IMG/VR virus record: IMGVR_UViG_3300045988_108118
Direction: 5' to 3' (one strand)
From: a virus
Length of the DNA stretch: 46,320 nucleotides
Both the position numbers and the translations under genes were made by a program. Positions 29,868 through 46,320 of this stretch are shown here, in pieces. The notes below the pieces were generated by a model. It did no database searches. It saw only the letters and a list, made by a program, of their open reading frames with translations, and was not told the DNA's origin. Each line of letters begins with the position of its first letter. The first letter of the stretch is position 1.

Positions 29868-29921
29868 AAAATGTCACGCTCCTTTTATTTATTTAATGAA
29901 ATAAATTGCGACAACAACGCC

Positions 29922-30017
29922 CTACAATCTGACTTTAACCGCATCGCGCCACTTTTCCGGAACATTGTCCAGCGTAATCAGCCCGCGCTTGATGCAGCAG
30001 ATATAAAACTGTACCAT
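29922..30017 (-). CDS. XkdX-like small tail-fibre-region protein (31 aa).
   Basis: ATG follows GGAGGTG. Translation MVQFYICCIKRGLITLDNVPEKWRDAVKVRL. Confidence 0.55.
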   Translation of the reverse strand: MVQFYICCIKRGLITLDNVPEKWRDAVKVRL

Positions 30018-30018
30018 A

Positions 30019-30336: not shown

Positions 30337-30347
30337 TTTGTACCTCG

Positions 30348-30680: not shown

Positions 30681-30711
30681 AAAATCACCCTTTCTTCATT
30701 TTGCGAAAATG

Positions 30712-31104
30712 TTATTTAATTTCAGTGCCTTTGATACCGAAAATCTGATACGGGATGGTACTTTCCCAGTGTGTTGTGTCACCGGAAAAAGGCGTTCCGA
30801 TCGTGATGTTTGCGCCGTCAAATGTCACCATACGGTTAATGCTTCTGTCATTTGCTGTTACGCAACATCTTGCACCGCGCACTACGATATTTTCCATTAC
30901 ATACTGCGGGGAAACAGACGTGTATGCTTTGACGGTAATACAATAAGCGGCATAAAGCTGGGTGCCAGTATCGGCTGTTCCGCTGCCATATTCAGATGTA
31001 TGGTTGCCATTTGTCCAAAGCAGGATTTTCTCGGCATCGGCAAGATTCTCAAAGGTCTTTTTGAACTTGTCACCGCCTCCCGGAATCCTCGGTGCCACAC
31101 CCAT
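30712..31104 (-). CDS. Small fibre-region protein with an MGVAPRIPGG N-terminus (paralog pair).
   Basis: ATG at 31104 overlaps the upstream-ORF stop (TGATG). The ORF-track start at 31128 is less likely. Confidence 0.7.
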   Translation of the reverse strand: MGVAPRIPGGGDKFKKTFENLADAEKILLWTNGNHTSEYGSGTADTGTQLYAAYCITVKAYTSVSPQYVMENIVVRGARCCVTANDRSINRMVTFDGANITIGTPFSGDTTHWESTIPYQIFGIKGTEIK

Positions 31105-31181
31105 CAGCAGTACCCCCGCGCAGCACATGCCGCAGATTTCTTACGGGGGGGGGTAAAACTACGTACGAACGAATGTTTCAT
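31104..31181 (-). CDS. 25-codon upstream ORF containing the C9 tract.
   Basis: RBS TGGAGG. Translation MKHSFVRSFTPPRKKSAACAARGYC. Its stop overlaps the ATG of 30712-31104. Confidence 0.35.
   Translation of the reverse strand: MKHSFVRSFTPPRKKSAACAARGYC
31145..31153. repeat. G9 homopolymer (C9 on the coding strand).
   Basis: Direct reading: ttacGGGGGGGGGtaaaac. Confidence 0.95.
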
Positions 31182-31193
31182 GCTAAACCTCCA

Positions 31194-31922
31194 TCAACTT
31201 TGAATAACCCACCGCGCCCGGATCTCGGCGGTAGGCTTTTCTTTTACCTTAACCAGCACCGAATTGTACGCCGTGACCGTCACGCCGTCGTTGATGATGT
31301 CCTGCACTTCATTCAGCACATCATCGGTAGCGGGCACCCCGGTCTTATCGTAGCCGATGCCGGACAAAAACTCGCTGGCAGCCGTCACCACCGGCGCATG
31401 GCTGTTCGCGCAGGTCAGCGTAGCCGTCTGCTGGTACAGTAGGCCTTTGGCCTGGTCGGTTGTCCAGGTCGAACCCCAATTGTTTACATTCAGTGTTGCA
31501 TAGTAAACGTTGGCCACCTTATCCGTGTATTTGAAAATGTCCGTGCTCCGCCCCTGCGGGTCGTATGTGCTTTCCGCCAACGCACCAACATCGTCTGCGG
31601 TCAGCACAACAGCTCCGATCTCGCCGTTCACACTTTGCACACGGTCAGAGACGGGAGTTTCCCACTCTGCATCAAAGTTGGCTCTACTCTTTTTCGTCAA
31701 GACCTGCCCAGAGATACCACCAGAAGGGATACCGTGTGTATCTCCGCCAGTGGACTGGTCAACCCACTTCAAATCGTAGTCAGTTGCAGACTTTTTAGCC
31801 AAGACCTGACCCGATGTACCGCCAATAGGAACTTGGGCGGAACTATTCATGGTATCAGCCTTGTCGAGCAGGTCATCAATCTCTTTGCCAGTGTATTTGA
31901 GGTTGTAGCCTTGGTCAGCCAT
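31194..31922 (-). CDS. Tail fibre protein with duplicated 'GG(T/I)SGQVL.KKS' motifs.
   Basis: GGTSGQVLAKKSATDYDLKWV and GGISGQVLTKKSRANFDAEWE. Confidence 0.8.
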   Translation of the reverse strand: MADQGYNLKYTGKEIDDLLDKADTMNSSAQVPIGGTSGQVLAKKSATDYDLKWVDQSTGGDTHGIPSGGISGQVLTKKSRANFDAEWETPVSDRVQSVNGEIGAVVLTADDVGALAESTYDPQGRSTDIFKYTDKVANVYYATLNVNNWGSTWTTDQAKGLLYQQTATLTCANSHAPVVTAASEFLSGIGYDKTGVPATDDVLNEVQDIINDGVTVTAYNSVLVKVKEKPTAEIRARWVIQS

Positions 31923-32158
31923 TATTCTTTCACCTCGTCTGTTTTATTGGAACCTGTATTCATTTCCAACGTATCTACGTGCAAATTCACTTCTTGACTA
32001 GCTTGCAGGTTGGCAATTTGCTCATTCTTTAACTCTGCATTAAGTTTCAAAAGAGCATTTTCAACAACCAAAGACTTGACCATAAGCGGCATTGTAGAGT
32101 TGTTGATGACGGCAAACAGGTCGCGTTGCAGGTTCATAATTACTTCATTGTCACTCAT
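31922..32158 (-). CDS. Hypothetical protein (78 aa).
   Basis: ORF with an ATGA-type junction to the fibre gene. Confidence 0.6.
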   Translation of the reverse strand: MSDNEVIMNLQRDLFAVINNSTMPLMVKSLVVENALLKLNAELKNEQIANLQASQEVNLHVDTLEMNTGSNKTDEVKE

Positions 32159-32168
32159 AGTGTCTCCT

Positions 32169-34043
32169 TTACCATGCGTTGCCTTGGTGGGCAGTTAGCA
32201 GATATTCCCAAGTGGGAGTGCCTTCTTGGTTTGTGTAGTTTACACGGGACAAAGCCACATTGTGACCGTCAATCCTTAAACGCTTACATTCAAGATAACC
32301 TAGACCATTCTCGCCACCGATTGACAAGTGTCCCTCGCCAGAACCGTCCGACTCAAACATCATAAATGTTTTGCCGGATGCGTTGCGCATAGCCATCTTG
32401 GCACCGCCTTGGTCTGTATATATGTCTACACGCTTGTCACTAGAGCCTTGGTCGCCGTAAACAGTGATGTGACCTAGCAGGTAAGAACCGCCAACGCCAT
32501 CGGAATAAATTCTTACAGCGGGGGACCACTCGCCAGATGCAACTTTTTGCGACAATATGATTTCGCCATCACCAACAATGGCTTTGCTGTAAGTTGTCTG
32601 CGAGGTTAGCGTTCCTGTGATGCTTACAGTGCCATCTTGCTTTAGCTTGAAGTTATCAGAATCAACGACAAGTGTGCCACCCTTGAATGTGATTGTTCCA
32701 GATTCAATTGTTACAGATGTTTGGTCAAGAGCGAACTTAGAACGAACATTGCCATCTGTAACGGCAGTCAATTCAAACTTATTAAAAGTTTGTTCGAGTT
32801 GCGTGTATTGAGTGCTTAGACCGCTGATGTCTTTCGTTGTCTGTTCAGCCTTTACGGTAAGGCCATCAACTGTTTCGGAGATTTCAAGAATCTTTTGTTT
32901 TGAGTTGTATTTGGCGTTATTCACCGTAGTGGTTGTGTTTCGGTTAATAGAACCTACGCTCTCGAACGTGCATCTGTTACCGGAGCGCTTAATTGATGTA
33001 ATCCAAGTGACAAACTTTCGCTTACCATCCGTTACCGTTACGATGTCGCCAGCGCGAATATCAAGCGTTTCGGGAGTCTGAATGTTGGAACATGGCACAT
33101 AGACCATGTTGTTCAAGCGGTCGTACAGATTCTTTACATACGGTCGTAGCGTTGCATCGGAGTCAGTAACAAGCAACTTGTTACAGCTTATAACCAGAGC
33201 ATTTGTGCCTGCCGCATCAGCGGGATAAATAACGCCTACGTCATCATCAGACTGTTTAACTTGAACTTTATCAATTGCGGTAACGGTGAAGTCGGAAAAT
33301 GTAAGCTGGCCAGAGAAGTACGGAGTGCTTTCCGGCTGATACACAACATCAGCTGTGCGGAGTTTAACAACCTGACGGTCGCGGAGAATCTTGTTCTCTT
33401 TATCGTATGCCGTCTTGTGAAAGCGAAGGCTCTTAGACTTGTTCGTGGCAATAAGCAACTCCGAGTTAGTGACGTACCACGCATACTCCAATTCTCCATT
33501 GGCAGCGGCACGAATGAAGCACCCGGTAGCCTGTGCCACCATCTTCATCAGGTCGCGGCCAGTGGAACTGTTTGCCGTAAACGCCTGTACGGGATAATCA
33601 CCGTTGATAGGCGGGACATTCTTGAATGTCAGCCCACACTTTGCGGCAAGACTATTTGCAAATGCCTCAATCGTAATCGGGAAATTGAGCGAGTTCAGCC
33701 AATCAGCAACATCAATGTCCAGCTTTGCGATGTTATCGTAAGCAGTTACTTTGTATTTATTGCCGCCGTCTTTCTCCGGCTTTTCGCAAGTGTAAATGCC
33801 AATCTGGTATTCAGTGCCAGTATCAGCATCAACCTTATAGTAAGTCAGAGTTGACCCTTGCGCGATGGCAAGAGAGCCATCAGAAGTAATCCAAAACTCA
33901 ATGTCGATTGCATTGGCACATACAGCACCGGGCGTGATGTTATCGCTATCAGAGTTTACCTGTTCAGTCCAGCTAACGCTAACGATGTTATCGTACAAGA
34001 CAGTGCCATCGGCTAACACGAACTTGTTATAGAACATCGTCAA
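32169..34043 (-). CDS. Tail tip / baseplate hub (Tal-like) protein.
   Basis: 624 aa, in the position after TMP and Dit. No catalytic motif recognised. Confidence 0.8.
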   Translation of the reverse strand: MTMFYNKFVLADGTVLYDNIVSVSWTEQVNSDSDNITPGAVCANAIDIEFWITSDGSLAIAQGSTLTYYKVDADTGTEYQIGIYTCEKPEKDGGNKYKVTAYDNIAKLDIDVADWLNSLNFPITIEAFANSLAAKCGLTFKNVPPINGDYPVQAFTANSSTGRDLMKMVAQATGCFIRAAANGELEYAWYVTNSELLIATNKSKSLRFHKTAYDKENKILRDRQVVKLRTADVVYQPESTPYFSGQLTFSDFTVTAIDKVQVKQSDDDVGVIYPADAAGTNALVISCNKLLVTDSDATLRPYVKNLYDRLNNMVYVPCSNIQTPETLDIRAGDIVTVTDGKRKFVTWITSIKRSGNRCTFESVGSINRNTTTTVNNAKYNSKQKILEISETVDGLTVKAEQTTKDISGLSTQYTQLEQTFNKFELTAVTDGNVRSKFALDQTSVTIESGTITFKGGTLVVDSDNFKLKQDGTVSITGTLTSQTTYSKAIVGDGEIILSQKVASGEWSPAVRIYSDGVGGSYLLGHITVYGDQGSSDKRVDIYTDQGGAKMAMRNASGKTFMMFESDGSGEGHLSIGGENGLGYLECKRLRIDGHNVALSRVNYTNQEGTPTWEYLLTAHQGNAW

Positions 34044-34072
34044 TCACCTGCCAATCTATCATAGTTATTATA

Positions 34073-34468
34073 TTACGCTCCTGTGCCGATAATGTCAAAC
34101 TTAAAATCACGATACAGGCCATCGTAGAAATAAGCACTGTACGCAGAACCACTTGACGTAGAGCAGTAGGCTTCAAATGTCTCCGGGGTTCCGTCCTCTT
34201 TCGGGCAAGTAAACTGGAATGTCTTGCCTTGGACAAGGTTATTCATGTAAGCCATCTGCTCTCTCGTTACGGCCTTGTAAGAGAACTTTGCTTTAGGGAT
34301 TCTTTGTTTGACCCACTCGATGTGCATAACTCCATCTTGCGTGCGGCCAGACCCATCTGCGGAGATGGAGTTCCACTCCATTTGAACTCCACCGTCCGCA
34401 TCAGGTTCATACAGGGGCGAACCGTTGACAAAAAATTCTGTTGACATTTTTCTGTCAAGACTAGCCAT
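34073..34468 (-). CDS. Distal tail protein (short Dit-like).
   Basis: 131 aa, directly downstream of the TMP. Assigned by position. Confidence 0.6.
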   Translation of the reverse strand: MASLDRKMSTEFFVNGSPLYEPDADGGVQMEWNSISADGSGRTQDGVMHIEWVKQRIPKAKFSYKAVTREQMAYMNNLVQGKTFQFTCPKEDGTPETFEAYCSTSSGSAYSAYFYDGLYRDFKFDIIGTGA

Positions 34469-37230
34469 TAGTATGCACCCCCGTTAATTACAGATTGCTT
34501 GCGTTCGTAGCGAGAAGCCGCACGACCGATTGTATCATCACCGATAGATACAGACATATCCTTGTTGTTAATTGCCTGCACGACAGCCATACAGCCCTGC
34601 CAGAACACGTCTGCCATGGCTTGGTTGGCGTTCATTTGGGCTTCACCAACAGAAGATGCGTCAATGCTTACAGACCCGTTCACATTGCCAATGCCGAGTG
34701 CAGGAACACTCAACGCGGATTGCATACCAGCTGCAAGACGGCCAGTGGCAGCATAGACTAAGTTGGAGTTATCATCAATGCCATTAGCCAAGCCGCGCAT
34801 GAAGTCTGGCATCCATTGTTCATAGCTGCGAAGCGGCCCCTCGTCAGGACGAGAGAAGTGCAACAGGCTAGTAATCTTGTCGGCAACCGCGTGAATTGCG
34901 TTTCCTACTGCGTCTTTAGCCCTCGAAATGCCATCAGCGAAGCCTTGAATCATATCTTTGCCCCATGTAAGAGCATCATTGACAAGGCTCGACAGGTCAC
35001 ATTTCTTTTTGATGTCGCCTATGACATCGGTGACTTTACCAAAGAAAGCGCGAATACCGTTCACTAAGCCTTGGACAATCATGTTGCCAAAGTCAGAGAA
35101 CACTGTGGACGGAGAATGAATACCAAGTTCTTTTTTAAATCTGGCAGGGATTTCAAGTGCCCAATCAACAACTTCTTTAATTGCGCGAGGAACACCCTCA
35201 ACGATGCCCTTGATAAATCCGTCAATGATAGCACCAGCAGCATCAATGAATCCGTTCACCATTTCCTTGATTCCCTCGCCAACGCCATTAACGAAGTTGC
35301 GGAAAGTTTCAGAGTGCTTGTAAAGTGCAATAAATGCAGCGCCAAGAGCCGCGACAACGAGAATAACTGCGTTTAGAGGGCCACCAACAAGCATAACTGC
35401 GTATTGGACAAGGAAAATTGCAGTCTTTACGGCAGTGATGACCGTTATAGCAGTTCTAATAACGCCGATAACGCCAGTAATAGCACCGACAACAATCGCA
35501 ATTACGCCAACAATAGGAGCAATGACACCAATGACGTACCCAATCTTTTGAGAAATGCTTTGCACGGCATCGCTGTTTTGATTCAAGTAATCAGTTAAGG
35601 TGAAAATCTTTTCGAGAATCGGGCCAAATATATCTTCTGCAATGCCCCAGATAACACCCAGAGAATCAGAGAAGCCTTGAATAAAGCCGTCTGCGGCAGG
35701 TGCAAGAACATTGTTTATGATAGATGCAAGTAGCTGCATTGCGTTATCAAGGAACCACAACGCATCAGCAAACATCTGTGCACCAACACGACCCTCGCCA
35801 AAGAAGTTTTCAAGAATCGAGATGTCGATGGTAGTCATCAGATTTCCGATTGCAGAGAACAACTCTTGCGCACTGGCAAACAGGCTATCCTTGTGCGAAT
35901 CCCAGATTGACTTCATGTTATCAAGAGCATCCTGCCAAGCCTGTTTCAGAGGGCTGACAATTGCTTCCATATCAGGAGTTACCTGCTCTTGGCTCCACAT
36001 TGAACCTGGGTCGATTCCGAGAGTTTCACCAGCACCCGAACCAGACTTAGATTGAACAACTTCAAGTTCGTCAAACCCAGCAAGGAACGCTTTCTGCGCC
36101 TTAGAACCTTGTTTCAAAGAGTTAGCATAGTTGACATTGTTCTTAATTGCCTTGTTATAGAACGAACGCCCAGTTAAGGCAGAAAGGAACTGCGACAGCA
36201 TATTAAATGCGTTTGCAATCGCTGATGCCAGCATATTGAACGCAGGTGTCAGCAAGGAAATGATAGGCTCTACCGCGGCCATGATTGCGTTACGCATGAA
36301 CAGCATGTTAGACGCAATCGAGGATACGTTATCGTTGAAGCTGGCAAGACTACCAGTAGCGCCAGTGTCGAACTGCTGCGACCAGATAGCCATAGCTTGT
36401 GTGGCTTGGATGGCAGCGTTCATAATTTCTTTGATAGCGCCACGAACTAAACGATAGAACGTAATATTTTTGATAGAACGAGACAGCTGGGCAAAGAACG
36501 TGTCGTTCTTTTTGACAGCACCAGTTGCATCATTAGCGCTTCGACTAAAAAATCTAAGAGCAGTAGAGGCTTGGTTTGTACTCTGCGTTGCAGTTTGTGA
36601 CGCAAGAGAGCGCTGATATTCTGCGGCAGCTAATTGCTCTGCGGCTCGCATGGATTCTTCGGCAGCTGACAGGCCACCAAACATGCCAACATTATCGCCG
36701 CCAAGAGAAGATTCTGTGTCTTTAACGGCACCATTAACGGCTCGTTTTAGCTGCTTAAAGCGGTCTAACTTCTTCGTTGCAGCGTCAAGCTGAACGCCGA
36801 GCGCATTGTATTCGCTTGCAACAGATTGTGCGCTGTCGCTTGTTATGCCTTGTTCGATGCTAACTTTGCGATACTCAATCATCAGCTGCGCCATCTGGGC
36901 TTTCAGATTCGTTACCTCTGACTTAGCCCGTCTAAACGCATCGTTGATTTGTTCTTGACGCTCTTTCACCTGCTCATAAGTAGCAGGGTTGGCTTTCGTT
37001 TTAGATACAGCAGCATCAGCAGCAGCTTTTGCGTCTTTCATCTTTTGAAAGCTATCAGCAACTTGGGCTACTTGTCCCTTTATGGCCTGACCAAATTGAG
37101 AGGACGCAATTGTTTTTGTAACGTTTGAAACAGTGTCGCCCAACTTAGAGAATTGATAGTTGAGCTGGCCGAGAGCAGTAAGCGCTTGGTCAACTTTAGC
37201 GCTAATTTCAAATCCGAGTTCATCAGCCAT
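34468..37230 (-). CDS. Tape measure protein.
   Basis: 920 aa. Coiled-coil N-terminus, long hydrophobic Gly/Ala/Ile/Val segment, position after the G/GT chaperones. Confidence 0.9.
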   Translation of the reverse strand: MADELGFEISAKVDQALTALGQLNYQFSKLGDTVSNVTKTIASSQFGQAIKGQVAQVADSFQKMKDAKAAADAAVSKTKANPATYEQVKERQEQINDAFRRAKSEVTNLKAQMAQLMIEYRKVSIEQGITSDSAQSVASEYNALGVQLDAATKKLDRFKQLKRAVNGAVKDTESSLGGDNVGMFGGLSAAEESMRAAEQLAAAEYQRSLASQTATQSTNQASTALRFFSRSANDATGAVKKNDTFFAQLSRSIKNITFYRLVRGAIKEIMNAAIQATQAMAIWSQQFDTGATGSLASFNDNVSSIASNMLFMRNAIMAAVEPIISLLTPAFNMLASAIANAFNMLSQFLSALTGRSFYNKAIKNNVNYANSLKQGSKAQKAFLAGFDELEVVQSKSGSGAGETLGIDPGSMWSQEQVTPDMEAIVSPLKQAWQDALDNMKSIWDSHKDSLFASAQELFSAIGNLMTTIDISILENFFGEGRVGAQMFADALWFLDNAMQLLASIINNVLAPAADGFIQGFSDSLGVIWGIAEDIFGPILEKIFTLTDYLNQNSDAVQSISQKIGYVIGVIAPIVGVIAIVVGAITGVIGVIRTAITVITAVKTAIFLVQYAVMLVGGPLNAVILVVAALGAAFIALYKHSETFRNFVNGVGEGIKEMVNGFIDAAGAIIDGFIKGIVEGVPRAIKEVVDWALEIPARFKKELGIHSPSTVFSDFGNMIVQGLVNGIRAFFGKVTDVIGDIKKKCDLSSLVNDALTWGKDMIQGFADGISRAKDAVGNAIHAVADKITSLLHFSRPDEGPLRSYEQWMPDFMRGLANGIDDNSNLVYAATGRLAAGMQSALSVPALGIGNVNGSVSIDASSVGEAQMNANQAMADVFWQGCMAVVQAINNKDMSVSIGDDTIGRAASRYERKQSVINGGAY

Positions 37231-37600
37231 CTACACCACCACCCTCTTTTTTGTGTTTTGCTTTTATCATCTTGTTCCACTCCAAAGACCAAGCATAGAA
37301 TCTCGCTGCATCCGCGTTCATCTTCTTGGTTTTTTCTTCCTCTGGTGTTGTGGTTAAGTTCAAGTTAAGCGGCTTTTCTGGATAAGATTTCTTGCCAAAA
37401 GAAGCGCCGAGCGCATAGGCAACATACATGCCGTTAAGCCATGCGGCAACATTGCTTGTTTCAAATTGCAACTCGGTTTTTACTTTGAAAGCATCAAAAA
37501 ATGGTTGTAGCAAAAGAGGGTTGAGCGACCAGAATGTGTCATACCCAACCCCCATTGCTAACGCTTGCGGCAACCATCCTTTATAGACGGCTTCACGCAT
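37223..37600 (-). CDS. T portion of the tail assembly chaperone, expressed as a G-T fusion by a -1 frameshift.
   Basis: The -1 frame from the slippery site is open and runs into MREAVYKGWLPQ.... Confidence 0.75.
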   Translation of the reverse strand: MREAVYKGWLPQALAMGVGYDTFWSLNPLLLQPFFDAFKVKTELQFETSNVAAWLNGMYVAYALGASFGKKSYPEKPLNLNLTTTPEEEKTKKMNADAARFYAWSLEWNKMIKAKHKKEGGGVDG

Positions 37601-37611
37601 ATTTTTGTATT

Positions 37612-37929
37612 TTACGCTTTCTTTGCGGGAACTTTCTGCACAGTTGCTTTCCCCGCGTCCGCTTTCTTGGCGAGAGACTGAAAAAAACCGCTGTTTTCCA
37701 TAGCATCAGACATTGCCTTAACCAGTTCGGTAATGTCGCCGCCACCCTCGACAAACTTCTCGATTTCCTCACCAGCTTCGTCAGGGGAGATGCCCAGACC
37801 GATAGCAACGAAACCGCGAAGCATGGACATTGTCTTTCTATCTTCACCGAGAGACACGCCAATGTCTTCGAGTTGGCAGATTGTGTTAAACGTGATTTCG
37901 AGTTTCAACTCTTTGCCGTTGATAATCAT
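37612..37929 (-). CDS. Tail assembly chaperone G.
   Basis: 105 aa, lying between the major tail protein and the TMP. Translation MIINGKELKLEITFNTICQLEDIG... Confidence 0.8.
   Translation of the reverse strand: MIINGKELKLEITFNTICQLEDIGVSLGEDRKTMSMLRGFVAIGLGISPDEAGEEIEKFVEGGGDITELVKAMSDAMENSGFFQSLAKKADAGKATVQKVPAKKA
37681..37687 (-). promoter_or_regulatory. -1 programmed frameshift slippery heptamer U UUU UUU.
   Basis: Zero frame is GGT TTT TTT CAG. The -1 frame has no stop until it joins 37223-37600. Confidence 0.75.
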
Positions 37930-37969
37930 AATTTGTTCTCCTTGTCAAATATGACTTAGCGTAATATTG

Positions 37970-38057
37970 TAAGGCGTTCCCACCTCGTCCAACTAAGGAC
38001 GCAAGGCACGGGGTGAGGGGAAATTCCCCTGCAAACCCCGTAAGGAGAACGCCTTGC
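37970..38057 (-). other. GC-rich multi-helix RNA element between the major tail gene and the chaperone gene.
   Basis: Outer helix AAGGCGTTC/GAACGCCTT; inner helices CGTCC/GGACG, ACGGGGT/ACCCCGT and GGGGAA/TTCCCC; competing pairing GCAAGGC/GCCTTGC. No U-tract. Confidence 0.45.
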
Positions 38058-38065
38058 TGCGTTTA

Positions 38066-38488
38066 TCAGGAAGTGGGCTTTGTGGTTTTAACCTCGCTGT
38101 CGCAAGTGACAACAATCTTTGCTTCCACAACAGAACCAGTGCCAGTGCCGGAAACGTAGGTAGTGACCTGACCAGCGAAGTAGAAAGAACCCTCGCCGCC
38201 TGCACCATCGTTACCGAAGTCCAGTTCAAAGTAGTGGGTAGAGTTGTCGTCCAGAGCCGCAACTTTTGTAAAGTTGTCCTTGGTGTAGTTGTAGGTGAAC
38301 TCAAAACTGCCAGTGTCTTGCAGACCTTGGATATAGCGCTTCATCTTGTCACGCAGAGTGGTGACTTCGATGGTATCAGGAGCGGAACCCAAATCGGGGA
38401 AATCCTTGACGGGAACCAGCTCTGCGTAAGTGCCTGCCGCAGTATCGGAAGTTTTGAGGACAATATTATAACTGGAAATAGCTGCCAT
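38066..38488 (-). CDS. Major tail protein (TP901-1/phi13-like).
   Basis: YAELVPVKDFPDLGSAPDTIEVTTLRDKMKRYIQGLQDTG. Confidence 0.9.
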   Translation of the reverse strand: MAAISSYNIVLKTSDTAAGTYAELVPVKDFPDLGSAPDTIEVTTLRDKMKRYIQGLQDTGSFEFTYNYTKDNFTKVAALDDNSTHYFELDFGNDGAGGEGSFYFAGQVTTYVSGTGTGSVVEAKIVVTCDSEVKTTKPTS

Positions 38489-38494
38489 TTACTA

Positions 38495-38899
38495 TTACCC
38501 CCTAAAGGTCGTATCGGTTGATGTGTCGATAATGGCCGTGAAGCGCATCACAACACGTTCGTATTTCTGTGTCTTGTCTCCCCTGTTCGGGTCATACGAA
38601 TCCATCTGAAAGCCAAGCCCTTGCATCGCATTAGACACAAGCAAGGAAATTTGAGTTGCTTGAACCCGGTCGTTGTCGCCTTGCGTATACACGTTCACAT
38701 CAAAAGCGTATCTCGCATGATGCCAGCCAGCGGAATCATAAGTCTGACTTAACAGGCTGTTATCAATCTGGGTAACAATCACGGCGGGATAATGCGCATC
38801 GCCTTTATTGTAACCTGCATACACTCGGACGTTCTCAACGTCTTTAAGTTTCGAGAGAAGATACTTGCGAATATCAATCTCGTAGTTCTTGATGTCCAC
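38495..38899 (-). CDS. Tail terminator/completion protein (DUF3168-like).
   Basis: Assigned by position, plus IRKYLLSKLKDVENVRVYAGY...YPAVIVTQ. Confidence 0.7.
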   Translation of the reverse strand: MDIKNYEIDIRKYLLSKLKDVENVRVYAGYNKGDAHYPAVIVTQIDNSLLSQTYDSAGWHHARYAFDVNVYTQGDNDRVQATQISLLVSNAMQGLGFQMDSYDPNRGDKTQKYERVVMRFTAIIDTSTDTTFRG

Positions 38900-38901
38900 G
38901 A

Positions 38902-39528
38902 TTACTTCTCCTTTAACTTAATTCCGTTTTGCTGGAAGTAATACTTAGCCAACTTAGCGCCGTTGTCATCGAAATACTTCTTAGCATCGTACATCTGGTG
39001 TTGTGACGGTTGACCACAAGTCAGATAGTGAAATGCTCCATCTCTGCTACCGTTGTAACCAACGACCACAGGCATACCCCTGTCATCCTTAGTCCAATAA
39101 GGTGCCCAAGTGCCAACCTTGGAATGGATAAACTTACCATCTATGGTCTTGAACGTCTGTTCGCCACCAGACATGTCACCAGAGTTGTAGCCGTTATAAG
39201 GGAAAGAACCCTCTGGCTGCGGCCCATCGGCTGGATATGGATATTGCTGACCGTTCAAGCCAGTGCCGTACTCAACATAAATTGCACGTTCGTCCGTGTT
39301 TTTTATGCGAGTGCGGTAATATTTGCCTACCTTTTGCGGTGGTTCCATATCAGCTGTCTTTGACAGAGAGCCGGGAAGCGAGAACTTGTAGCGGTCGAAA
39401 GTCTTTTCTGTCGCATAATCCAAAGCGCCTTGCGTGTGCTTTTCAAGGTCTTTTGCAAGAAGTTCATACTGCTTGGCAAGAGCTTTAATGTTCTTTACGC
39501 CAAGCCAAGTTCTTCTTACTTGAGCCAT
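38902..39528 (-). CDS. HK97 gp10-family neck/tail component.
   Basis: ERAIYVEYGTG motif and position. Confidence 0.75.
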   Translation of the reverse strand: MAQVRRTWLGVKNIKALAKQYELLAKDLEKHTQGALDYATEKTFDRYKFSLPGSLSKTADMEPPQKVGKYYRTRIKNTDERAIYVEYGTGLNGQQYPYPADGPQPEGSFPYNGYNSGDMSGGEQTFKTIDGKFIHSKVGTWAPYWTKDDRGMPVVVGYNGSRDGAFHYLTCGQPSQHQMYDAKKYFDDNGAKLAKYYFQQNGIKLKEK

Positions 39529-39534
39529 AGAATC

Positions 39535-39879
39535 TCACCTGCGCTTTAGACCAATTCGGACTTGGTTGATGCTATCTGCAACACGGTCGACAACCAGATT
39601 CGGCTTACCGTCACTGGGTTTCTTATTGTGCCAGATAAGAGTTTTGCCCTCTGTGAATTGCAGAGGTTCATACTCTTTAGCTGTGACAATAATCACGAAG
39701 TTGTAGTTAGCCCAAATGCCGTTTTCCGTGCCGTAGGCATAGCCAGTAGGAGCGGAAATGTTGACCATTACAGATACAGGCTCGGAGTATTCGTATACAT
39801 CGTTGCCCGTTTCATCCTCACCCACAACAGTAGGGTTGGAGAACCAAATCTCTCGCTTGTTTCGTTCAAGACTTCGCAT
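39535..39879 (-). CDS. Head closure / head-tail joining protein.
   Basis: Size (114 aa) and position. Confidence 0.7.
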   Translation of the reverse strand: MRSLERNKREIWFSNPTVVGEDETGNDVYEYSEPVSVMVNISAPTGYAYGTENGIWANYNFVIIVTAKEYEPLQFTEGKTLIWHNKKPSDGKPNLVVDRVADSINQVRIGLKRR

Positions 39880-40219
39880 CGCTGCTCACCGCCTTGGGAA
39901 CGCCACAGAAAGGAACCACATTGCTAATGATGAAGTCCTCGATACTCTGATAAGTACGATTTACACCATTCTCGCCGTGTGAGGTTTCACCCTCTGCGCC
40001 ACGTTGGTTGTACATGCGTTCAGCAACTTCAACTTGGAGAAAACTGTACCGGGACGGCACATCTTCGTTGGTAGAACCGTAAGGATATACCGCCCGGACA
40101 ATCTTCTTACCAGATTGAGTGAGCAACAGAGTCAGGAGTTCATCTTCGTCTGTGTCATCAATGCCGAGCATGATTTTCAGTTGTTGAAGTTTTTCTTCCA
40201 TAACTCTGTCCTCGCTCAT
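39866..40219 (-). CDS. gp6-like head-tail connector protein.
   Basis: LQQLKIMLGIDDTDEDELLTLLLTQSGKKIV. Confidence 0.8.
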   Translation of the reverse strand: MSEDRVMEEKLQQLKIMLGIDDTDEDELLTLLLTQSGKKIVRAVYPYGSTNEDVPSRYSFLQVEVAERMYNQRGAEGETSHGENGVNRTYQSIEDFIISNVVPFCGVPKAVSSDAKS

Positions 40220-40235
40220 TTAACTTTGGCTTAGA

Positions 40236-41258
40236 TTAGCCGTTGGAGACAATCTTGGCCAGCTTGATGTTCTTAGCATCCCAGACCTTAGTCCAGTTGG
40301 CCTTAGTGCCCAGCTCGACACGGGTCGGGGAGTTCTTGGCAATCTTGCTGACATCCAGAGACATGCCCAGCGGGTGCATAGCCATGCCCCACTTGGTGTA
40401 CAGCTTGTTCACGCCGCCCTTGGACTCAGGGTCGTAATCGACGTAGTTGGGACGGTCGATGCGGACGTTCCGAGCGGTAGCGATAGCACCCTCACCCAGC
40501 AGGTAGGTGGTGTAAGTTGCAACGCCATCCTTTTTGCCAGTAGTCAGGCTGTCATCGACCATAACCAGATACTTGTTCAACAGCAGGCCAAACTGAACGC
40601 CACGGCTGTAAGCATCAGGTGTGGTAGCGATGTTGTTGACCAGTTGCAGTTTCAGCAGGTTCGTGTACACACGAGAGTGCATAGCAACCATGGTCAGGTC
40701 ATCGAAGTTGTCGCCCAGAGCTTCCTGCGCAGCATCGAGGAAAGTGTCGGCAGACAGACGGTTCTCTGCGGTGGGAGTAGCAGAAGTGCCAGCGCCCTTG
40801 TCGGCGGTGATGTCCTTGACGTGGCTGGACATAGCGTCAACAGTCAGAACGCCATCAATGACAGACAGAAGGTCTTTCTGGTTGTTCTTTTGCTGGTAGT
40901 AAGCGACCTTACGAGCAACATCGCCCAGAGGGTCAGCGCCGGTCAGCTCACGAGTGAAGTCTTGGTCTTTCCAAGCGGCCATACGGCGGAAAGCCATGCC
41001 GGTCTGCTTGGCGGCAGCGACTTCAACAGGGGTGTTGTCGGTCTCGCCATCGTAGTTCTTGGCATCGCCAGTCAGGGGGGTGTAGTTGGGGACGGTAAAC
41101 ACGTTGTTCTTGTCGGTCAGCACAGCGCTGATTTCGGGAGCAACGCGCAGAACGCCAGAATTGATAATCGAGGTGTGTACGGGGTCTGCTTCTTGGATGT
41201 AATCAGTGAAAACATCGGGGTCGAAGTAGAAACCACCAAAAGTGCCAGTTACAGCCAT
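40236..41258 (-). CDS. Major capsid protein.
   Basis: 340 aa, downstream of the scaffold gene, with high-expression-type codon usage. Assigned by position. Confidence 0.85.
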   Translation of the reverse strand: MAVTGTFGGFYFDPDVFTDYIQEADPVHTSIINSGVLRVAPEISAVLTDKNNVFTVPNYTPLTGDAKNYDGETDNTPVEVAAAKQTGMAFRRMAAWKDQDFTRELTGADPLGDVARKVAYYQQKNNQKDLLSVIDGVLTVDAMSSHVKDITADKGAGTSATPTAENRLSADTFLDAAQEALGDNFDDLTMVAMHSRVYTNLLKLQLVNNIATTPDAYSRGVQFGLLLNKYLVMVDDSLTTGKKDGVATYTTYLLGEGAIATARNVRIDRPNYVDYDPESKGGVNKLYTKWGMAMHPLGMSLDVSKIAKNSPTRVELGTKANWTKVWDAKNIKLAKIVSNG

Positions 41259-41285
41259 TGTTTGATTCCTCTCTTTAACTTAGAT

Positions 41286-41864
41286 TTAGAAGTGTTTCGC
41301 CAATTTAGCGGATTCGGCCTTGTACAGTTCGGGATTCTTCTGTTTCAGCTCCATCCGTTCTTGCATAGTCATCTTGGAAAACTCTTTGTTGGCAGGAGCA
41401 TTACCGTCAGAGGGCTGCTTCATACCTTGCATGAGTTCTTGGCGAATTGCGGTCGCAATCGCTTCTTTCTCCGCGTTGTAAGTATCGATGATGGTCTGTG
41501 CGCCAGCCATAGCATCTTCATCTTCCATGTCGGAGAACTTGTCAATGAGTTTCGCATAGCCGTCAGACTTAATACCGCTTTTTGCCAAAGCAGATTCAAT
41601 CTTGCTCTTGCGGCGGTCTTTCATCAGTGCGGCGTTCTGCGCCTTGATAGCGGCAATGTCTGCCGCTTGCTTCTCTGCATCGGTCATCTGGTGCTGCTTC
41701 AACTGGTCAAGTTCAGAAACAGCGTTCTGATATTTGCCAGCGCTCACATATTCGCCAGTTCCGAGGTCAGCCAGCTTAATGCCTTTTGCTTGAAGTGCTG
41801 CGTCCAATTGTTCTTTAGTCATGCTTTCGGCATCACCAAAGATTGTGCCAAAATCAAATGCCAT
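41286..41864 (-). CDS. Scaffolding protein.
   Basis: ATG at 41864 follows AAAGGA. Helical and charged, with Q/K/E-rich coiled coil, lying between portal and capsid genes. Confidence 0.8.
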   Translation of the reverse strand: MAFDFGTIFGDAESMTKEQLDAALQAKGIKLADLGTGEYVSAGKYQNAVSELDQLKQHQMTDAEKQAADIAAIKAQNAALMKDRRKSKIESALAKSGIKSDGYAKLIDKFSDMEDEDAMAGAQTIIDTYNAEKEAIATAIRQELMQGMKQPSDGNAPANKEFSKMTMQERMELKQKNPELYKAESAKLAKHF

Positions 41865-41959
41865 AGTAGTTTTCCTTTCCACTGTTTAAACGTGTTGTGA
41901 ATCCACAGTCTCTTGCAGTTAAGCGCCAGCAAGATAGGCGAAATCTATCTAAAATCGGA

Positions 41960-43654
41960 TTACTCCGACTTAGCCTTGTTGATTGCGTCATTCTGGGCGT
42001 TATTATCGCCCTTAGTTGTAGTGTCGCTAGCTTTAGCGTCACGCTGCGCGTTCTTTGCATCGTCGGCATCCTGCGGCTTATTCGTCTTATCGCTTGTACC
42101 GTCAGGATTATTCGACTCTTGAAGCTGTTCGGGTTGAGGTTGAGGTTTCCACTTCTCAATCATGAAATCCTCGCTCATATTGAACAGGTTTTCCGGGTCA
42201 CTTGTGATGTCGCTAAGAGAAATAGCGCCGAGCGGATGAATGCCAGCTTGCAGCAGGTTAAGCAGGACTTGGCTCTTATTCAGCAAGTTGTCGGTACGAT
42301 TACGAGTGAACTTGATGTCAATGTCAGACGTTTCAAGACCTGTAACCTTGTACTTAGGGAACGCTTGCAGAATTTTGAGCATGACCAAAATGGTTTCACG
42401 CTCGCTCTTGAAGAACATCTTCTCGAAGCTAAGAGCGCGGCTCTCTGCGTTCGTCCAACCTTGACCAATGATAAGTGCTTGACCTGTATTGCCACCGGCA
42501 GAAGCGCGTCTATCAGGTACACCAGCGATTGCAAGAACCTTGTTGTACAAATCCTCAACCAGAGTTTGCGTCTGGTCTTGATTCAACTCGCTGGTAATAA
42601 TGTCAACGTCAGCTTGATACTGACCATTTGACTGAACCTTGATAGCGCCGAGTTCTTTCATCGCAGTGAAAGTTTCCTCGTCAATGTCGCAGTTAATGAA
42701 CTTGATGAAGCTCTGAACAAATTGCTGAACACCATCTACACGGTCGGAAGCCATCTCATTGAGAGCGTCAAGGAGTTCGATAACAGGCTCAAAAGAACCC
42801 AATCTGGAAGTGTTAGCGTCGTATTCAACAATCGGGTTAATCCCCATAGGATTTGGCGTAACTTCAAATTGGGTTGTTCCGCTTACAACAATGTCCATCC
42901 AAGACGTGGCTTGGTCGCTATCATCGGCGACAGGCATCGAATACGGCAGAGAGGCCGTGAACACGTTGTCATCGGTGTAGGCAATAATGTCAACCGTATC
43001 GGTCAGACCAACACCGTGCTTTCTGTGATAAGTGCAACTTAGCAGCTTCGAGTGTTCCATATTCGTGCTGTACACGCAGAAAGTGTTTCGCGGGTCAAGC
43101 ACAGAAGTATGAAACGGCGGTGCAGACTTCTCTTTACGCTTCGCAGCGTAAGCAGTCAGCGGGAAAGTCGCTTTAAAGCCAATACCGCACTCAAAAATCC
43201 AATCAGCGAGTTCGCGGTCAGTGTTAGGCTTGTCATCGTTCAAGCACAAAGTATTTAAACGATTGACTTTATCCTCACCATTGCGTTTGCGCGGCTTGGG
43301 AGCCATTTCTGCGGCCTTTTGAGCGTCAAGCGTATCAGGTGTAGCCTGTTCGCTATCGTCGTTCTCAGAGCGTGCTACATAGGTTACAGGAGAGCCAAAG
43401 CAATAGCCGGTTTTGAACTCGACAATCTCATAAGCATGGTTTTCAACAATTTTATTGTTGATTTCCGGGCGTACATCCTTGGTGCGATTCAGCACGGGTT
43501 GAATACCCTTTGCATAATTATGCAGATAGTCAATGTCCTCTGCGTTTTGCAGGTGAACCGGGATTGCATCAGCAAGAATCCGAGCGACGACAATCGCATC
43601 TAAATCTTCTGGTTCGTAAGACGAATAGATTTTTTTTCGACCTTTGTTAAGCAT
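41960..43654 (-). CDS. Portal protein (SPP1 gp6-like).
   Basis: ATG at 43654 follows GGGGGTG. NNKIVENHAYEIVEFKTGYCFGSPVTY. The ORF-track start at 43756 runs into the promoter region. Confidence 0.9.
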   Translation of the reverse strand: MLNKGRKKIYSSYEPEDLDAIVVARILADAIPVHLQNAEDIDYLHNYAKGIQPVLNRTKDVRPEINNKIVENHAYEIVEFKTGYCFGSPVTYVARSENDDSEQATPDTLDAQKAAEMAPKPRKRNGEDKVNRLNTLCLNDDKPNTDRELADWIFECGIGFKATFPLTAYAAKRKEKSAPPFHTSVLDPRNTFCVYSTNMEHSKLLSCTYHRKHGVGLTDTVDIIAYTDDNVFTASLPYSMPVADDSDQATSWMDIVVSGTTQFEVTPNPMGINPIVEYDANTSRLGSFEPVIELLDALNEMASDRVDGVQQFVQSFIKFINCDIDEETFTAMKELGAIKVQSNGQYQADVDIITSELNQDQTQTLVEDLYNKVLAIAGVPDRRASAGGNTGQALIIGQGWTNAESRALSFEKMFFKSERETILVMLKILQAFPKYKVTGLETSDIDIKFTRNRTDNLLNKSQVLLNLLQAGIHPLGAISLSDITSDPENLFNMSEDFMIEKWKPQPQPEQLQESNNPDGTSDKTNKPQDADDAKNAQRDAKASDTTTKGDNNAQNDAINKAKSE

Positions 43655-43681
43655 TAGTTCACCCCCGGTTTGCTTGATTCC

Positions 43682-43712
43682 ATAATAAAAGAAAAATGTT
43701 ACCAAGGTAACA
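43682..43712 (-). promoter_or_regulatory. Candidate late promoter with a weak -35 overlapped by a 16-nt perfect palindrome.
   Basis: On the minus strand: TTACCT, 17-nt spacer, TATTAT (43682-43687). Palindrome TGTTACCAAGGTAACA at 43697-43712. Confidence 0.4.
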
Positions 43713-43737
43713 GATTTGCGTTGAGTTGATTTCGCGC

Positions 43738-43766
43738 TTGCAAAAGTTGCGCTCAACTGGTATAAT
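43738..43766 (+). promoter_or_regulatory. Promoter for the HTH/TerL block.
   Basis: TTGCAA, 17-nt spacer, TGgTATAAT. Confidence 0.75.
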
Positions 43767-43801: not shown

Positions 43802-44065
43802 ATGGAATTTAAGCCACTCACAGCCAAAGAACTTGAATTTCTGGGCTATGGCTCACACACTACAATCAGCAAATACGTCGCCATGGGGATGCCAAGACAC
43901 GGCGTAAGAGGGCGGTACTGGTTCATTGAAGAAGAAGTACGCAACTGGATTCTATGCCGTGGAGAACCGATTTACATTGCTTGCCCGTGCTGCGGGAAAA
44001 TGATTAAAGTGCCGAAAGAGGTGATTCTAAATGCTAAACACTCCGAAGATGGCGAGAACGCCTGA
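43802..44065 (+). CDS. Excisionase/MerR-type HTH plus zinc-ribbon protein; candidate small terminase or regulator.
   Basis: LTAKELEFLGYGSHTTISKYVAMGMP....YWFIEEEVRNWI; CPCCGK. Confidence 0.7.
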   Translation: MEFKPLTAKELEFLGYGSHTTISKYVAMGMPRHGVRGRYWFIEEEVRNWILCRGEPIYIACPCCGKMIKVPKEVILNAKHSEDGENA

Positions 44066-45749
44066 GCAGGCAGAAGCCAAAGTCAGAATTATGAAGTTCA
44101 ACAAGCTGGTTCGAGACAATCCGACAGATGTTAAACTCGTAGAAGCAGCGCTCTCCGCTTGCGCAAATGCAACCGCAAACGATGACGGGACGTTTAACAC
44201 AACAGGAGAGGATAACGAATTTGCGTTTAAATCAGCGATGAATCTGTACAACGTCTGCCTTTGGAACATCGCAAACACGAGAAATCTGGATGAAAAGAGA
44301 AAGTGGGTCGCTCTGGCAAAGAGTTCTCTGCTGTATTTGGCTCACAAGTATTTTGATTCGTTCATGCTTTACTTGGAGTTCGACCGTAGGCCAGACAAGA
44401 GATTCTACGCTCCGCGACGGAAACAGTTGAAGCGCATTGTTGACGGTTTCCAAGATGTGGCTGACGGAAAGATTGACCTATTGACAGTTAGCCAGCCGAA
44501 GCGTACCGGCAAGACTACCCTTGGCCTAATGTTCGTTATTTGGAGAGCGGGGCTACTACCTGATAAGTCGTGCTTGCTGGCTGGCCGTGGAGATTCTCTG
44601 GTAAAGTCGTTCTATGATGAATGTCTTAACATCATGCAAGACAAAGCAACTTACAACTATTGGGATGTTTTTCCGGGCTGCACGATTGCAAATACCAACG
44701 CAGACCAAAAAACTATTGACCTTAACTCAAAAAAGCGTTTTAGTAGCATCGTATGCAAGTCACTTAGCGGACAAATGACCGGCGTCGTCGAGGCTTCTAA
44801 TATTCTATATATTGATGACCCCGTTCAAGACCAGCTTGAAGCGAGAAATATTGAACGTTTAAACACTCTTTGGGCTTCTGTCTCTGATGACTGTATGGGT
44901 CGCCGCAAAGAGGGAGTGCCAATTATTGCGCAGGGAACTCGATTCAGTATCAATGACCCGATTGGTAGGCTTCAATCAATTGCACCGCAGATGGGGTGGA
45001 GAGTTCGCATTGTAGAAGTGCCAGCACTTGACCCCGTTACCGATGAAAGCAATTTCCATTATAAGTACGGATTGGGGTTTAGCACCGAATATTATCGAAA
45101 CGAACGGAAAATGCTTGCTGATATTCAGTGGCAAAGTGAATATCAACAGCGACCAATTGAGGAACGCGGTACGGTGTTCAGCCGAAACGATTTACAGTAT
45201 TACGACAAACTACCAGATTTGGAGTGGGATGCTATTCTTGCGGTAACAGACCCGTCCGAGGGTAAAGGCGATAATACCTGCATGATAGTTGCTTTCGTAT
45301 CTGGAACGGAAGCCTACATCGAGGACGTTGTGTTCTCAAATGCCCTGCCGGAATATAATGCGCCTAAGTGCGGAATTATGTGCGTTAAGTATGGAGTTAA
45401 GATTTGTCAAATCGAATCTAACGCTAACGGTTTACTATTCGCTGAAAAGGTCGAGACTCAAATTAAAGCCATGAACGGTAGAACCAGCGTAAGAACGAAA
45501 CGCACAACAGCTAACAAGGAAACAAAGATTATTGTTGCATCCGACAATATTCGTAACCATTTCTGGTTCAAGAATCCTAACTACTTAGACCCGGCAAGCG
45601 AATACGCACAATATCTCAGAAATTTGTGGTCTTACAGCCAAGTTTCCAAAAATCTGACCGATGACGGCCCGGACTGTACCGCCATGATGGAGAACATGAT
45701 AGGAACACTGACAGCAAGTAAAGTGACCGCCTTTAAAAGACCGTTTTGA
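44031..45749 (+). CDS. terL: Terminase large subunit.
   Basis: Walker A-like QPKRTGKTT, Walker B ILYIDDP, C-terminal nuclease-type region AVTDPSEGKGDN...; RBS GAGGTG. Confidence 0.9.
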   Translation: MLNTPKMARTPEQAEAKVRIMKFNKLVRDNPTDVKLVEAALSACANATANDDGTFNTTGEDNEFAFKSAMNLYNVCLWNIANTRNLDEKRKWVALAKSSLLYLAHKYFDSFMLYLEFDRRPDKRFYAPRRKQLKRIVDGFQDVADGKIDLLTVSQPKRTGKTTLGLMFVIWRAGLLPDKSCLLAGRGDSLVKSFYDECLNIMQDKATYNYWDVFPGCTIANTNADQKTIDLNSKKRFSSIVCKSLSGQMTGVVEASNILYIDDPVQDQLEARNIERLNTLWASVSDDCMGRRKEGVPIIAQGTRFSINDPIGRLQSIAPQMGWRVRIVEVPALDPVTDESNFHYKYGLGFSTEYYRNERKMLADIQWQSEYQQRPIEERGTVFSRNDLQYYDKLPDLEWDAILAVTDPSEGKGDNTCMIVAFVSGTEAYIEDVVFSNALPEYNAPKCGIMCVKYGVKICQIESNANGLLFAEKVETQIKAMNGRTSVRTKRTTANKETKIIVASDNIRNHFWFKNPNYLDPASEYAQYLRNLWSYSQVSKNLTDDGPDCTAMMENMIGTLTASKVTAFKRPF

Positions 45750-45752
45750 TGG

Positions 45753-45781
45753 TTGACTTTTGCAGCAAAATGTGCTATCAT
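45753..45781 (+). promoter_or_regulatory. Promoter for the wrap-around wHTH gene.
   Basis: TTGACT (45753-45758), 17-nt spacer, TATCAT (45776-45781). Confidence 0.75.
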
Positions 45782-45790
45782 ACTGGTATA

Positions 45791-45897
45791 GGTTCTATTA
45801 GGAAGTTGCGGGCCGGATAGACCCGAAAACTGAATAGAGCCTAACAAGAACAGCTATCAAGATGTAACCGCAACTACGTCTTGGTGGCTGTTTTTGT
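45791..45897 (+). promoter_or_regulatory. Structured leader: hairpin 1 followed by a 16-bp terminator hairpin with a U-tract, copy 2.
   Basis: GGTTCTATT/AATAGAGCC (45791-99 and 45833-41). Stem 45849-45864 pairs with 45877-45892. U-tract at 45891-45895. Loop 7-mer CCGCAAC is complementary to GTTGCGG at 45805-11. Confidence 0.6.
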
Positions 45898-45919
45898 TAT
45901 CAAATGGAGATGTATAACA

Positions 45920-46320
45920 ATGATTATGCGCACCGAGAAAAACAAAAATTACACAGTGATGGGCAACTATCATCTGCGGGACAAAGAATTGTCTCTAAAA
46001 GCCAAGGGATTGTTGTCTATTATGTTGAGTTTGCCTGACGGCTGGAACTTCTCAACACAGGGGCTTACTACGCTTTCAAGTGACGGAGAGACAGCAATTC
46101 GGTCTACACTCAAAGAATTGGAGCAAAAAGGCTACCTAAAGCGCAATAAAGTACGTATTAACGGTAAAATTGTTGATTGGGAGTATGTTGTCTACGAGCA
46201 AAAACATCCATGTGTTCCAGTTGATGAAAGTCCAGTTGATGAAAACGTACATGTGAATAATCGCACCCAATTAAATACTAAAGAAATAAATACTAAAGAA
46301 ATAAATAATTTCTCAACATC
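45920..46320 (+). CDS. 5' part of the wHTH replication-initiator-like gene; continues at base 25 of the window.
   Basis: MIMRTEKNKNYTVMGNYHLRDKELSLKAKGLLSIMLSLPDGWNFSTQGLTTLSSDGETAIRSTLKELEQKGYLKR. The ORF is open to the window end. Confidence 0.8.
   Translation, partial: MIMRTEKNKNYTVMGNYHLRDKELSLKAKGLLSIMLSLPDGWNFSTQGLTTLSSDGETAIRSTLKELEQKGYLKRNKVRINGKIVDWEYVVYEQKHPCVPVDESPVDENVHVNNRTQLNTKEINTKEINNFST
46273..46302 (+). repeat. 15-nt x2 in-frame tandem duplication (NTKEI x2).
   Basis: aaatactaaagaaat is read twice, followed by a partial third copy. Confidence 0.9.

Follow-up and report, generated by a model that had tools for sequence, protein, structure and literature searches.

A conserved family of structured two-hairpin leaders preceding replication-organiser genes in uncultured gut phages

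Genome Setting of the Two Leaders

The window analysed here, a viral DNA stretch of 46,320 nt, is a complete, circularly permuted phage genome of 46,296 bp; positions 1–24 are identical to 46297–46320, and it is because of these identical 24-bp ends that the genome is regarded as complete and circularised. The end overlap adjoins a 15-bp tandem repeat (AATACTAAAGAAATA, two copies) that lies inside the replication-initiator-like gene (rep) and encodes NTKEINTKEI. Two similar leaders, designated copy 1 and copy 2, head the following genes:

22754–23242, plus strand: gene downstream of copy 1, 162 aa, with weak DnaD-like and O-like replication matches
45920–46320, continuing at 25–583, plus strand: rep, downstream of copy 2, giving 319 aa by wrap-around translation over the 24-bp overlap

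The Rep protein contains a Pfam HTH_36 domain, and its PHROG matches are to replication initiation and DnaD-like families. For the 22754–23242 protein, the PHROG matches are phrog_186 (E = 6.8e-6) and phrog_678 (E = 9e-4), and a Pfam search returned no match.

The operon behind the copy-2 leader comprises rep, dUTPase, ThyX, and three tRNAs; the tRNA genes (Gln-TTG, Met-CAT, and Thr-TGT) are located at 6026–6505, at the end of this rightward early operon. The gene directly 5' of the copy-2 leader encodes the large terminase (44031–45749; PHROG match). The terminase genes (43802–45749) are on the plus strand and read towards the leader, and the other structural genes (27566–43756) are on the minus strand. 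No terminator was found between the terminase stop codon (45749) and the copy-2 leader promoter; thus, the terminator of the copy-2 leader may also end terminase transcripts.

Copy 1 lies in a divergent control region (22433–22753), in which a near-consensus minus-strand promoter (22554–22526; 11/12 matches) is placed back to back with the copy-1 promoter. This minus-strand promoter drives the replication/recombination block (8403–22459), which encodes an exonuclease, an HNH endonuclease, a DnaB helicase, RusA, and an ATPase. The window has two HNH genes (3725–4429 and 19796–20464), and the ORFs scanned include no recognisable integrase-like gene. Copy 1 appears to control one gene only, since the ORFs from 23620 on are encoded on the minus strand.

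Structure of the Copy-2 Leader

The copy-2 leader (45753–45919) consists of the following elements:

45753–45781, plus strand: promoter, with −35 TTGACT at 45753–58, a 17-nt spacer, and −10 TATCAT at 45776–81
45791–45841, plus strand: hairpin 1, with outer stem P1 (45791–802 / 45830–41), an internal loop, inner helix P1b, and an apical loop
45809–12 / 45822–25, plus strand: inner helix P1b, from folding
45804–45811, plus strand: pivot segment X (AGTTGCGG), complementary to the terminator loop
45842–45899, plus strand: terminator hairpin, with a core 16-bp stem (45849–64 / 45877–92) that A-tract/U-tract pairing extends to ~25 bp
45868–45875, plus strand: X'' (CCGCAACT), occupying the whole 8-nt terminator loop and complementary to X

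The promoter has an extended −10 element (TG at 45773–74) and is the sole promoter-like site returned by a promoter scan of 45300–46320; transcription is predicted to start near 45788. The preliminary description had placed this promoter, a hairpin stem at 45791–99/45833–41, a 16-bp terminator stem, a T-run, and the ATG at 45920, and all of these coordinates are correct on reading the sequence. The closing stem of hairpin 1 is formed by GGTTCTATT (45791–99) pairing with AATAGAGCC (45833–41), including one G-U pair, and on folding the outer stem P1 reaches 12 layers, longer than first described. The 5' part of X lies in the internal loop, where the folds leave a single-stranded toehold of 3–5 nt, and its 3' part (CGG) is the 5' strand of P1b.

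A terminator loop of 12 nt bearing a 7-mer complement of hairpin 1 had also been proposed. The 7-mer complement is present (CCGCAAC/GTTGCGG), but the 12-nt loop becomes 8 nt (ACCGCAAC) in the minimum-free-energy fold, in which the terminator stem is 23–25 bp (45842–66 / 45875–99). The complementarity in copy 2 amounts to 8 nt (AGTTGCGG / CCGCAACT), within which GTTGCGG occupies 45805–11 and CCGCAAC 45868–74. The 16–25-bp stem is followed by a U-tract (TTTTTGTT at 45891–98, with TTTTT at 45891–95), the arrangement of an intrinsic terminator, and a U-tract is present in every member of the leader family. A simple terminator scan did not list the copy-2 hairpin, whereas a scan permitting long stems did. 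Downstream are a ribosome-binding site (RBS; GGAG, 45906–09) and the rep ATG (45920). The copy-2 leader fold has a free energy of −54.4 kcal/mol (z = −7.0), and none of 200 shuffled sequences folds as well.

Copy 1 and Its Kinship With Copy 2

The copy-1 leader is organised as follows:

22588–22616, plus strand: promoter, TTGCAA, 17-nt spacer, TG-extended TATAAT
22630–22683, plus strand: hairpin 1, with pivot X (GTGGTGG) at 22645–51
22684–22727, plus strand: terminator hairpin, with X'' (CCACCAC, 22703–09) in the loop and the U-tract at 22726–35

Its fold is also more stable than that of shuffled sequences (z = −6.0), and the view that the genome has a second copy of a promoter-proximal two-hairpin leader ending in a predicted terminator is supported. 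The accompanying statement that the two leaders are otherwise unrelated in sequence does not hold: a covariance model built from four copy-2-type leaders only matches copy 1 at 22630–22737 (E = 1.9e-6), plus all copy-1 relatives, and a second covariance model matches copy 1 with E = 1.5e-11. Because a model trained on copy-2-type leaders finds copy 1, both leaders are homologous and belong to one family. Additionally, the apical sequence CTGAACAAGGCC is common to copy 1 and intermediate relatives.

Distribution and Gene Linkage in Related Phages

Relatives were gathered by protein, with the Rep protein leading to 26 viral loci and the copy-1 protein to 77 loci, and approximately 35 related phage contigs have the leader. 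Promoter, hairpin 1, and terminator are found upstream of rep in all 13 of the closest rep relatives, and every one of the 12 contigs spanning the copy-1 region retains the copy-1-type leader. The copy-2-type promoter occurs in the same place in L001–L003 and L006–L013, mostly as TG-extended TTGACT-17-TATAAT (the −35 element of L001 differs).

The pairing segments exist in 11 distinct X/X'' versions of 7–9 nt, all Watson-Crick complementary and in one register. The copy-2-type versions of X are GTTGCGG, AATGCGG (9 bp), GTCGCAG, and TCTCAACC; the copy-1-type versions are GTGGTGG, GTGATGG, GTGACGG, and GTAGTGG; and more distant phages have AACCCGC (L039), GTAGCAG (L036, and L221 from a Ruminococcus MAG), and TTGCCCC (L117). 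The X segments of the two leaders of one genome always differ, and X versions reassort freely among genomes. A scan of metagenomes yielded no further 7-mer versions. One natural copy-1-type leader has an uncompensated mismatch at the central position of X'' (CCATAAC opposite GTGATGG); it was recovered from different collections, in an IMG/VR viral contig and a metagenome contig (L200:10478–10586 and L220:3414–3522). Thus, perfect X:X'' pairing is not strictly essential, and this leader could be an escape-type variant of the control.

The preliminary description linked the leader to genes for winged-helix replication-initiator- or organiser-like proteins, and this linkage extends to six independent lineages, in two of which (L004 and L036) another gene intervenes. 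In L036, an HNH endonuclease gene (2618–2970) lies between the leader and the replication gene. In L004 (2136–3000) and L005, a gene of unknown function and then an apparently HNH-type ORF separate the leader from rep, and it is because of these inserted genes that the leader is ~900 nt upstream of rep.

The related sequences originate from human, slow-loris, and ruminant gut samples. Searches against cultured phages with the DNA and with the copy-1 protein gave no match, and in cultured phages related in the Rep N-terminal domain (Maintenon, BMBtp1, and phiEF-1.1) the intergenic space is too small and holds no leader. For the host, a pattern scan of bacterial genomes returned nothing, and a protein scan returned a single contig with the leader, from a Ruminococcus MAG. 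At the gathering threshold, a scan of the whole window with Rfam 15 reported three tRNAs only and no leader family, and a permissive Rfam scan of 45600–46100 gave only sub-threshold chance matches to miRNAs and snoRNAs.

Covariation, Variability, and Energetics

Terminator indels defeated alignment with MAFFT and RNAalifold, and covariance models were used for alignment instead; covariation was scored on the resulting alignment (A7) of 18 distinct leaders. In outer stem P1, 98.6% of cells are paired and 10 of the 12 pairs change on both sides; in the terminator core stem the corresponding values are 94.4% and 16 of 16, and in P1b 88.7% and six of six. The X:X'' helix is absent from the covariance model, and hence the alignment is not fitted to it. 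In this helix, 95.7% of cells are paired and six of the seven pairs change on both sides, a result reached by none of 500 shuffles, while controls in which the register is slid by 1–3 columns are only 30–62% paired. The unpaired cells are accounted for by the placement of a one-column gap in the AATGCGG version, a register shift of one base in L117, and a single genuine mismatch. The chance that a single sequence has a 7-mer loop complement within ~50 nt is estimated at roughly 0.5%. The preliminary view that the geometry shared by the two leaders is structural is confirmed to the extent that the loop-to-hairpin-1 complementarity is a selected feature, kept through 11 versions and covarying above both shuffles and slid controls. 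The leaders thus form a conserved, statistically well-supported structured family that is absent from Rfam. In a generic scan of 1098 terminator-like hairpins, there was no overall excess of upstream loop complements (96 vs. 120 for a control in which a hit to either of two control k-mer types counts); the one class that stands out is the GC-rich one at a constant distance of 38–42 nt.

Alignment columns 22–24 are used by both P1b and X:X''. Because these columns covary with their P1b partner as well as with X'', both partners of X are conserved, and pairing with one excludes pairing with the other. The cost of freeing X from hairpin 1 is 6.7–14.9 kcal/mol, and formation of the X:X'' duplex yields −10.5 to −11.8 kcal/mol; the P1b state and the X:X'' state are close in energy. 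The X:X'' helix is without G-U pairs, and therefore the contact alone cannot tell RNA pairing from a DNA inverted repeat. In all 11 versions, the complementarity between hairpin 1 and the terminator stays in the terminator loop (±1 nt), and this confinement of X'' to the loop is more suggestive of a kissing loop than of a classical antiterminator.

Among eight copy-1-type leaders, variable columns make up 8% of P1 and the tail, 50–73% of the interior of hairpin 1, and 35–50% of the terminator stem arms and loop; in the adjacent gene, compared over four copy-1 loci (L027, L028, L029, and L031), 12% of columns are variable. A hypervariable pairing region of this kind appears to be the pattern of a specificity module; the hypervariability could come partly from mosaic recombination, the flanks also being highly variable. 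The most conserved primary sequence is the top of P1 together with the A-rich 3' internal loop. The P1b loops are mostly purine-rich pentaloops (GAACA, AAACA, GAUAA, GAUAU, and GGAUA), which we take to resemble boxB-type loops.

Candidate Regulators

It had been suggested that the encoded proteins might control their own genes through these leaders. Autoregulation at the 7-mers is not supported, because the leader versions and the protein versions are decoupled. L008 has the same 7-mer pair as the window in combination with a different N-terminal DNA-binding domain; the copy-1 proteins of L027–L031 are 93–97% identical, yet their leaders have three different 7-mer pairs; and the window copy-1 protein is only 75% identical to that of L028, with the same 7-mer. 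A trans factor, which had been named as the other option, may be at work, and in our reading the leader RNA itself is the most likely candidate.

Several known classes of leader control were tried and rejected. For an antisense RNA, no promoter is detectable on the strand opposite either leader: a consensus scan of 45300–46320 gave no minus-strand promoter-like site, and on the minus strand of the copy-1 region the same type of scan gave only 22554–22526, which is located 5' of the leader promoter and faces away from the leader. For a classical antiterminator, the complementarity of hairpin 1 to the terminator arms amounts to no more than 9 bp, weak and bulged, in copy 2 and 6 bp in copy 1, and neither match is general. 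Against a metabolite-binding riboswitch stands a hairpin-1 interior that has 50–73% variable columns, vs. 8% in the outer stem, and no conserved aptamer core. Elsewhere in the window, the 7-mers are about as frequent as chance predicts, and no such copy is obviously at an RBS.

Proposed Mechanism and Alternatives

We propose, with a probability of about one half, that each leader is a bistable, transcription-attenuating element that tunes a replication-organiser gene through mainly intermolecular kissing by the terminator loop. Each leader would be made by the host RNA polymerase from a strong promoter as an RNA of ~110 nt, in which hairpin 1 is followed by a strong intrinsic terminator. With this terminator between promoter and gene, most transcripts would stop there and only read-through transcripts would encode the protein; therefore, the default product should be a stable ~110-nt RNA. 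Within hairpin 1, X would choose between the 3' strand of P1b and X'' displayed on the folded terminator loop. Terminated leader RNAs, as they accumulate, would offer X'' to the X of nascent or read-through sister transcripts, such that the more leader RNA, and hence the more phage genome copies, the lower the downstream expression would be. Each leader and each phage type would have its own specific control, set by the exact 7-mer. An intermolecular contact is favoured because X'' is presented on a folded loop, the stem lengths are unmatched, and the hypervariable hairpin-1 interior and terminator stand against a constant P1 and tail. We infer termination at the hairpin, action between molecules, and the direction of the effect; the regulated step could be termination, mRNA decay, or translation. 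A stricter version, in which the terminated leader acts as an RNA-only, self-referential dosage sensor that regulates the output of its own promoter, with the 7–9-mer as an address code and with neither an antisense gene nor a protein, is offered more tentatively. Counted against the kissing proposal is that X lies partly in a helix rather than in a loop, and is thus not an ideal target. Furthermore, a complementarity scan and inspection found no antiterminator competing with the terminator stem, and the opening of P1b is tied to no concrete step in transcript fate.

The same pairing elements might instead work within a single transcript. In such an intramolecular switch, the emerging terminator loop would capture X to form a pseudoknot that hinders the terminator stem and permits read-through, and P1b would withhold X and thereby allow termination; the input would be whatever acts on P1b, perhaps a protein or other factor on the purine-rich pentaloop. 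Two exclusive pairings that both covary and are close in energy are what such a switch needs, and the single-stranded 3–5-nt toehold of X and the prevalence of purine-rich pentaloops in P1b also fit. We nevertheless consider it unlikely: a pre-emptive antiterminator should reach the terminator 5' arm, which the complementarity never does; the terminator hairpin core (−19 to −23 kcal/mol) folds locally and fast; the distance from the base of hairpin 1 to X is not matched to that from the terminator base to its loop (12 vs. 25 layers in copy 2, and 15 vs. 17 in copy 1); and the hairpin-1 interior, as the most variable part, argues against a conserved pocket for a ligand or protein. The unconstrained stem lengths would be explained if two leaders formed an antiparallel homodimer, which accommodates both kissing contacts at any stem length. 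This is the attraction of regarding the leader as a stand-alone small RNA, in which X:X'' would be architectural or would drive homodimer or oligomer formation and the function would lie elsewhere (as a protein decoy or stabiliser), with the gene receiving leak-through. In the pRNA of phi29, covarying complementary loops pair between molecules, and a 5' hairpin nearly flush with the predicted start, combined with a 3' terminator hairpin, is how stable small RNAs are typically built. The placement directly before a replication-organiser gene, with 15–30 nt from terminator to RBS, points to a leader role, and other genomic copies of the 7-mer occur at chance level with none obviously at a gene start; we regard a function apart from the gene as quite unlikely.

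Two further explanations shift the weight from RNA–RNA contacts to proteins. Protein-dependent antitermination, with hairpin 1 recruiting a phage or host antiterminator (as with lambda N at nut, or HK022 put) such that RNA polymerase reads through, agrees with the position of the two copies directly after two rightward promoters that precede replication-type genes, each copy then followed by a terminator. P1b would serve as a presumably boxB-like hairpin (4–6-bp stem, purine-rich loops of 5–7 nt), and the strongest conservation, at the top of P1 and in the A-rich 3' internal loop, would also be in keeping with it. Such a mechanism needs an additional protein, and the ORFs scanned include no recognisable N-like or Q-like gene; informal inspection of the leaders revealed no boxA-like element. 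Its chances appear poor, as do those of an added step in which the terminator loop invades P1b in released transcripts, thereby avoiding titration of the factor. Alternatively, X and X'' might be inverted-repeat half-sites in DNA for a regulator, for example the downstream winged-helix protein, with the RNA folds incidental. The Watson-Crick-only pairing of X:X'' and the start-to-start spacing of 63 bp in copy 2 (~six helical turns) would be natural for half-sites, but copy 1 has a spacing of 58 bp, X versions do not follow the DNA-binding domains of the downstream proteins, and X also covaries with its P1b partner. The many G-U pairs in P1 and the terminator stem are workable on the plus strand only, and the position of X'' always exactly in a hairpin loop is meaningless in duplex DNA; a DNA-level element is thus highly improbable.

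Comparison With Known Systems

The IncI-alpha and IncB plasmids (ColIb-P9 and pMU720) have repZ/repA leaders in which a pseudoknot turns on translation close to the RBS and a true antisense RNA acts as competitor. The phage leader is alike in that a leader hairpin, by pairing at long range with a distal complementary segment, would control a replication initiator, with an RNA bearing the same loop as competitor, and unlike in that its distal partner is the terminator loop and no antisense gene is seen.

The countertranscript attenuators of plasmid rep genes (pT181, pIP501, and pAMbeta1) likewise place an intrinsic terminator in the leader of a replication initiator, and in pT181-type attenuators a hairpin loop kisses the first leader hairpin. 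Orthogonality and specificity of the pT181 attenuator are set by changes in the loop and upper stem (PMC3753616); these specificity regions correspond to the hypervariable regions of the phage leader. In contrast to pT181-type systems, the phage leader is without a detectable antisense promoter, its pairing loop is that of its own terminator, it has no pre-emptor against the terminator 5' arm, and it resides in a phage genome rather than a plasmid.

In CI of the satellite phage P4, P1/P7 c4, and Gifsy-1 IsrK, the regulator and its targets share one strand and one transcript, as proposed here. P4 CI RNA base-pairs with two sites of its own leader, seqA and seqC, and stops replication-gene expression via premature transcription termination, and IsrK is a short terminated RNA that acts on its own read-through isoform, at translation (PMC4825925). 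The phage leader is a same-strand RNA with a loop (X'') complementary to its own transcript (X) and with both sides covarying; the resemblance to P4 CI/c4 is functional only, in that the leader has no Rfam C4 match, its pairing element is a terminator loop of 7–9 nt, and there is no sign of processing. The loop of a Rho-independent terminator serves as the pairing seed in Listeria LhrC and in Escherichia coli sRNAs acting on fepA (PMC4132741, PMC11979758). These sRNAs target unrelated mRNAs in trans, whereas the only conserved partner of the phage X'' lies ~60 nt upstream in the same leader.

Significance

The structure of the leader is established here, and we infer, as a testable proposal, that it is a kind of RNA-controlled attenuator. 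If control by kissing between leader RNAs applies, the regulator and the target transcript would be one, with the terminator loop doubling as recognition element in a very compact attenuator, and the leader would show how uncultured gut phages limit or time the synthesis of replication organisers. Matching 7-mers might let related phages interfere with each other, and under the dosage-sensor version the address code would govern replication-initiator expression across a clade of gut phages, in a role like that of plasmid incompatibility groups or phage immunity types. At least 11 distinct natural pairing codes on one conserved scaffold would also constitute an orthogonal part set for synthetic biology; orthogonal part sets based on pT181 had to be engineered (PMC3753616). 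Even without action in trans, the leaders are a well-supported new family of structured RNA, absent from Rfam.

Additional Observations on rep Relatives

A more distant rep relative (L014) differs in its upstream arrangement (2800–2995): a second promoter-like site lies within a long hairpin, and a G/C-rich terminator comes after this hairpin; this element was considered for the leader family and excluded, as it has no loop complementarity. The Rep proteins of the window and of L001–L013 are mosaic, with at least three unrelated N-terminal, presumably DNA-binding, domains on one conserved C-terminal domain. The conserved domain extends from residue ~135 to the C-terminus of the 319-aa protein, and the breakpoint lies near DAPIPxESVR.
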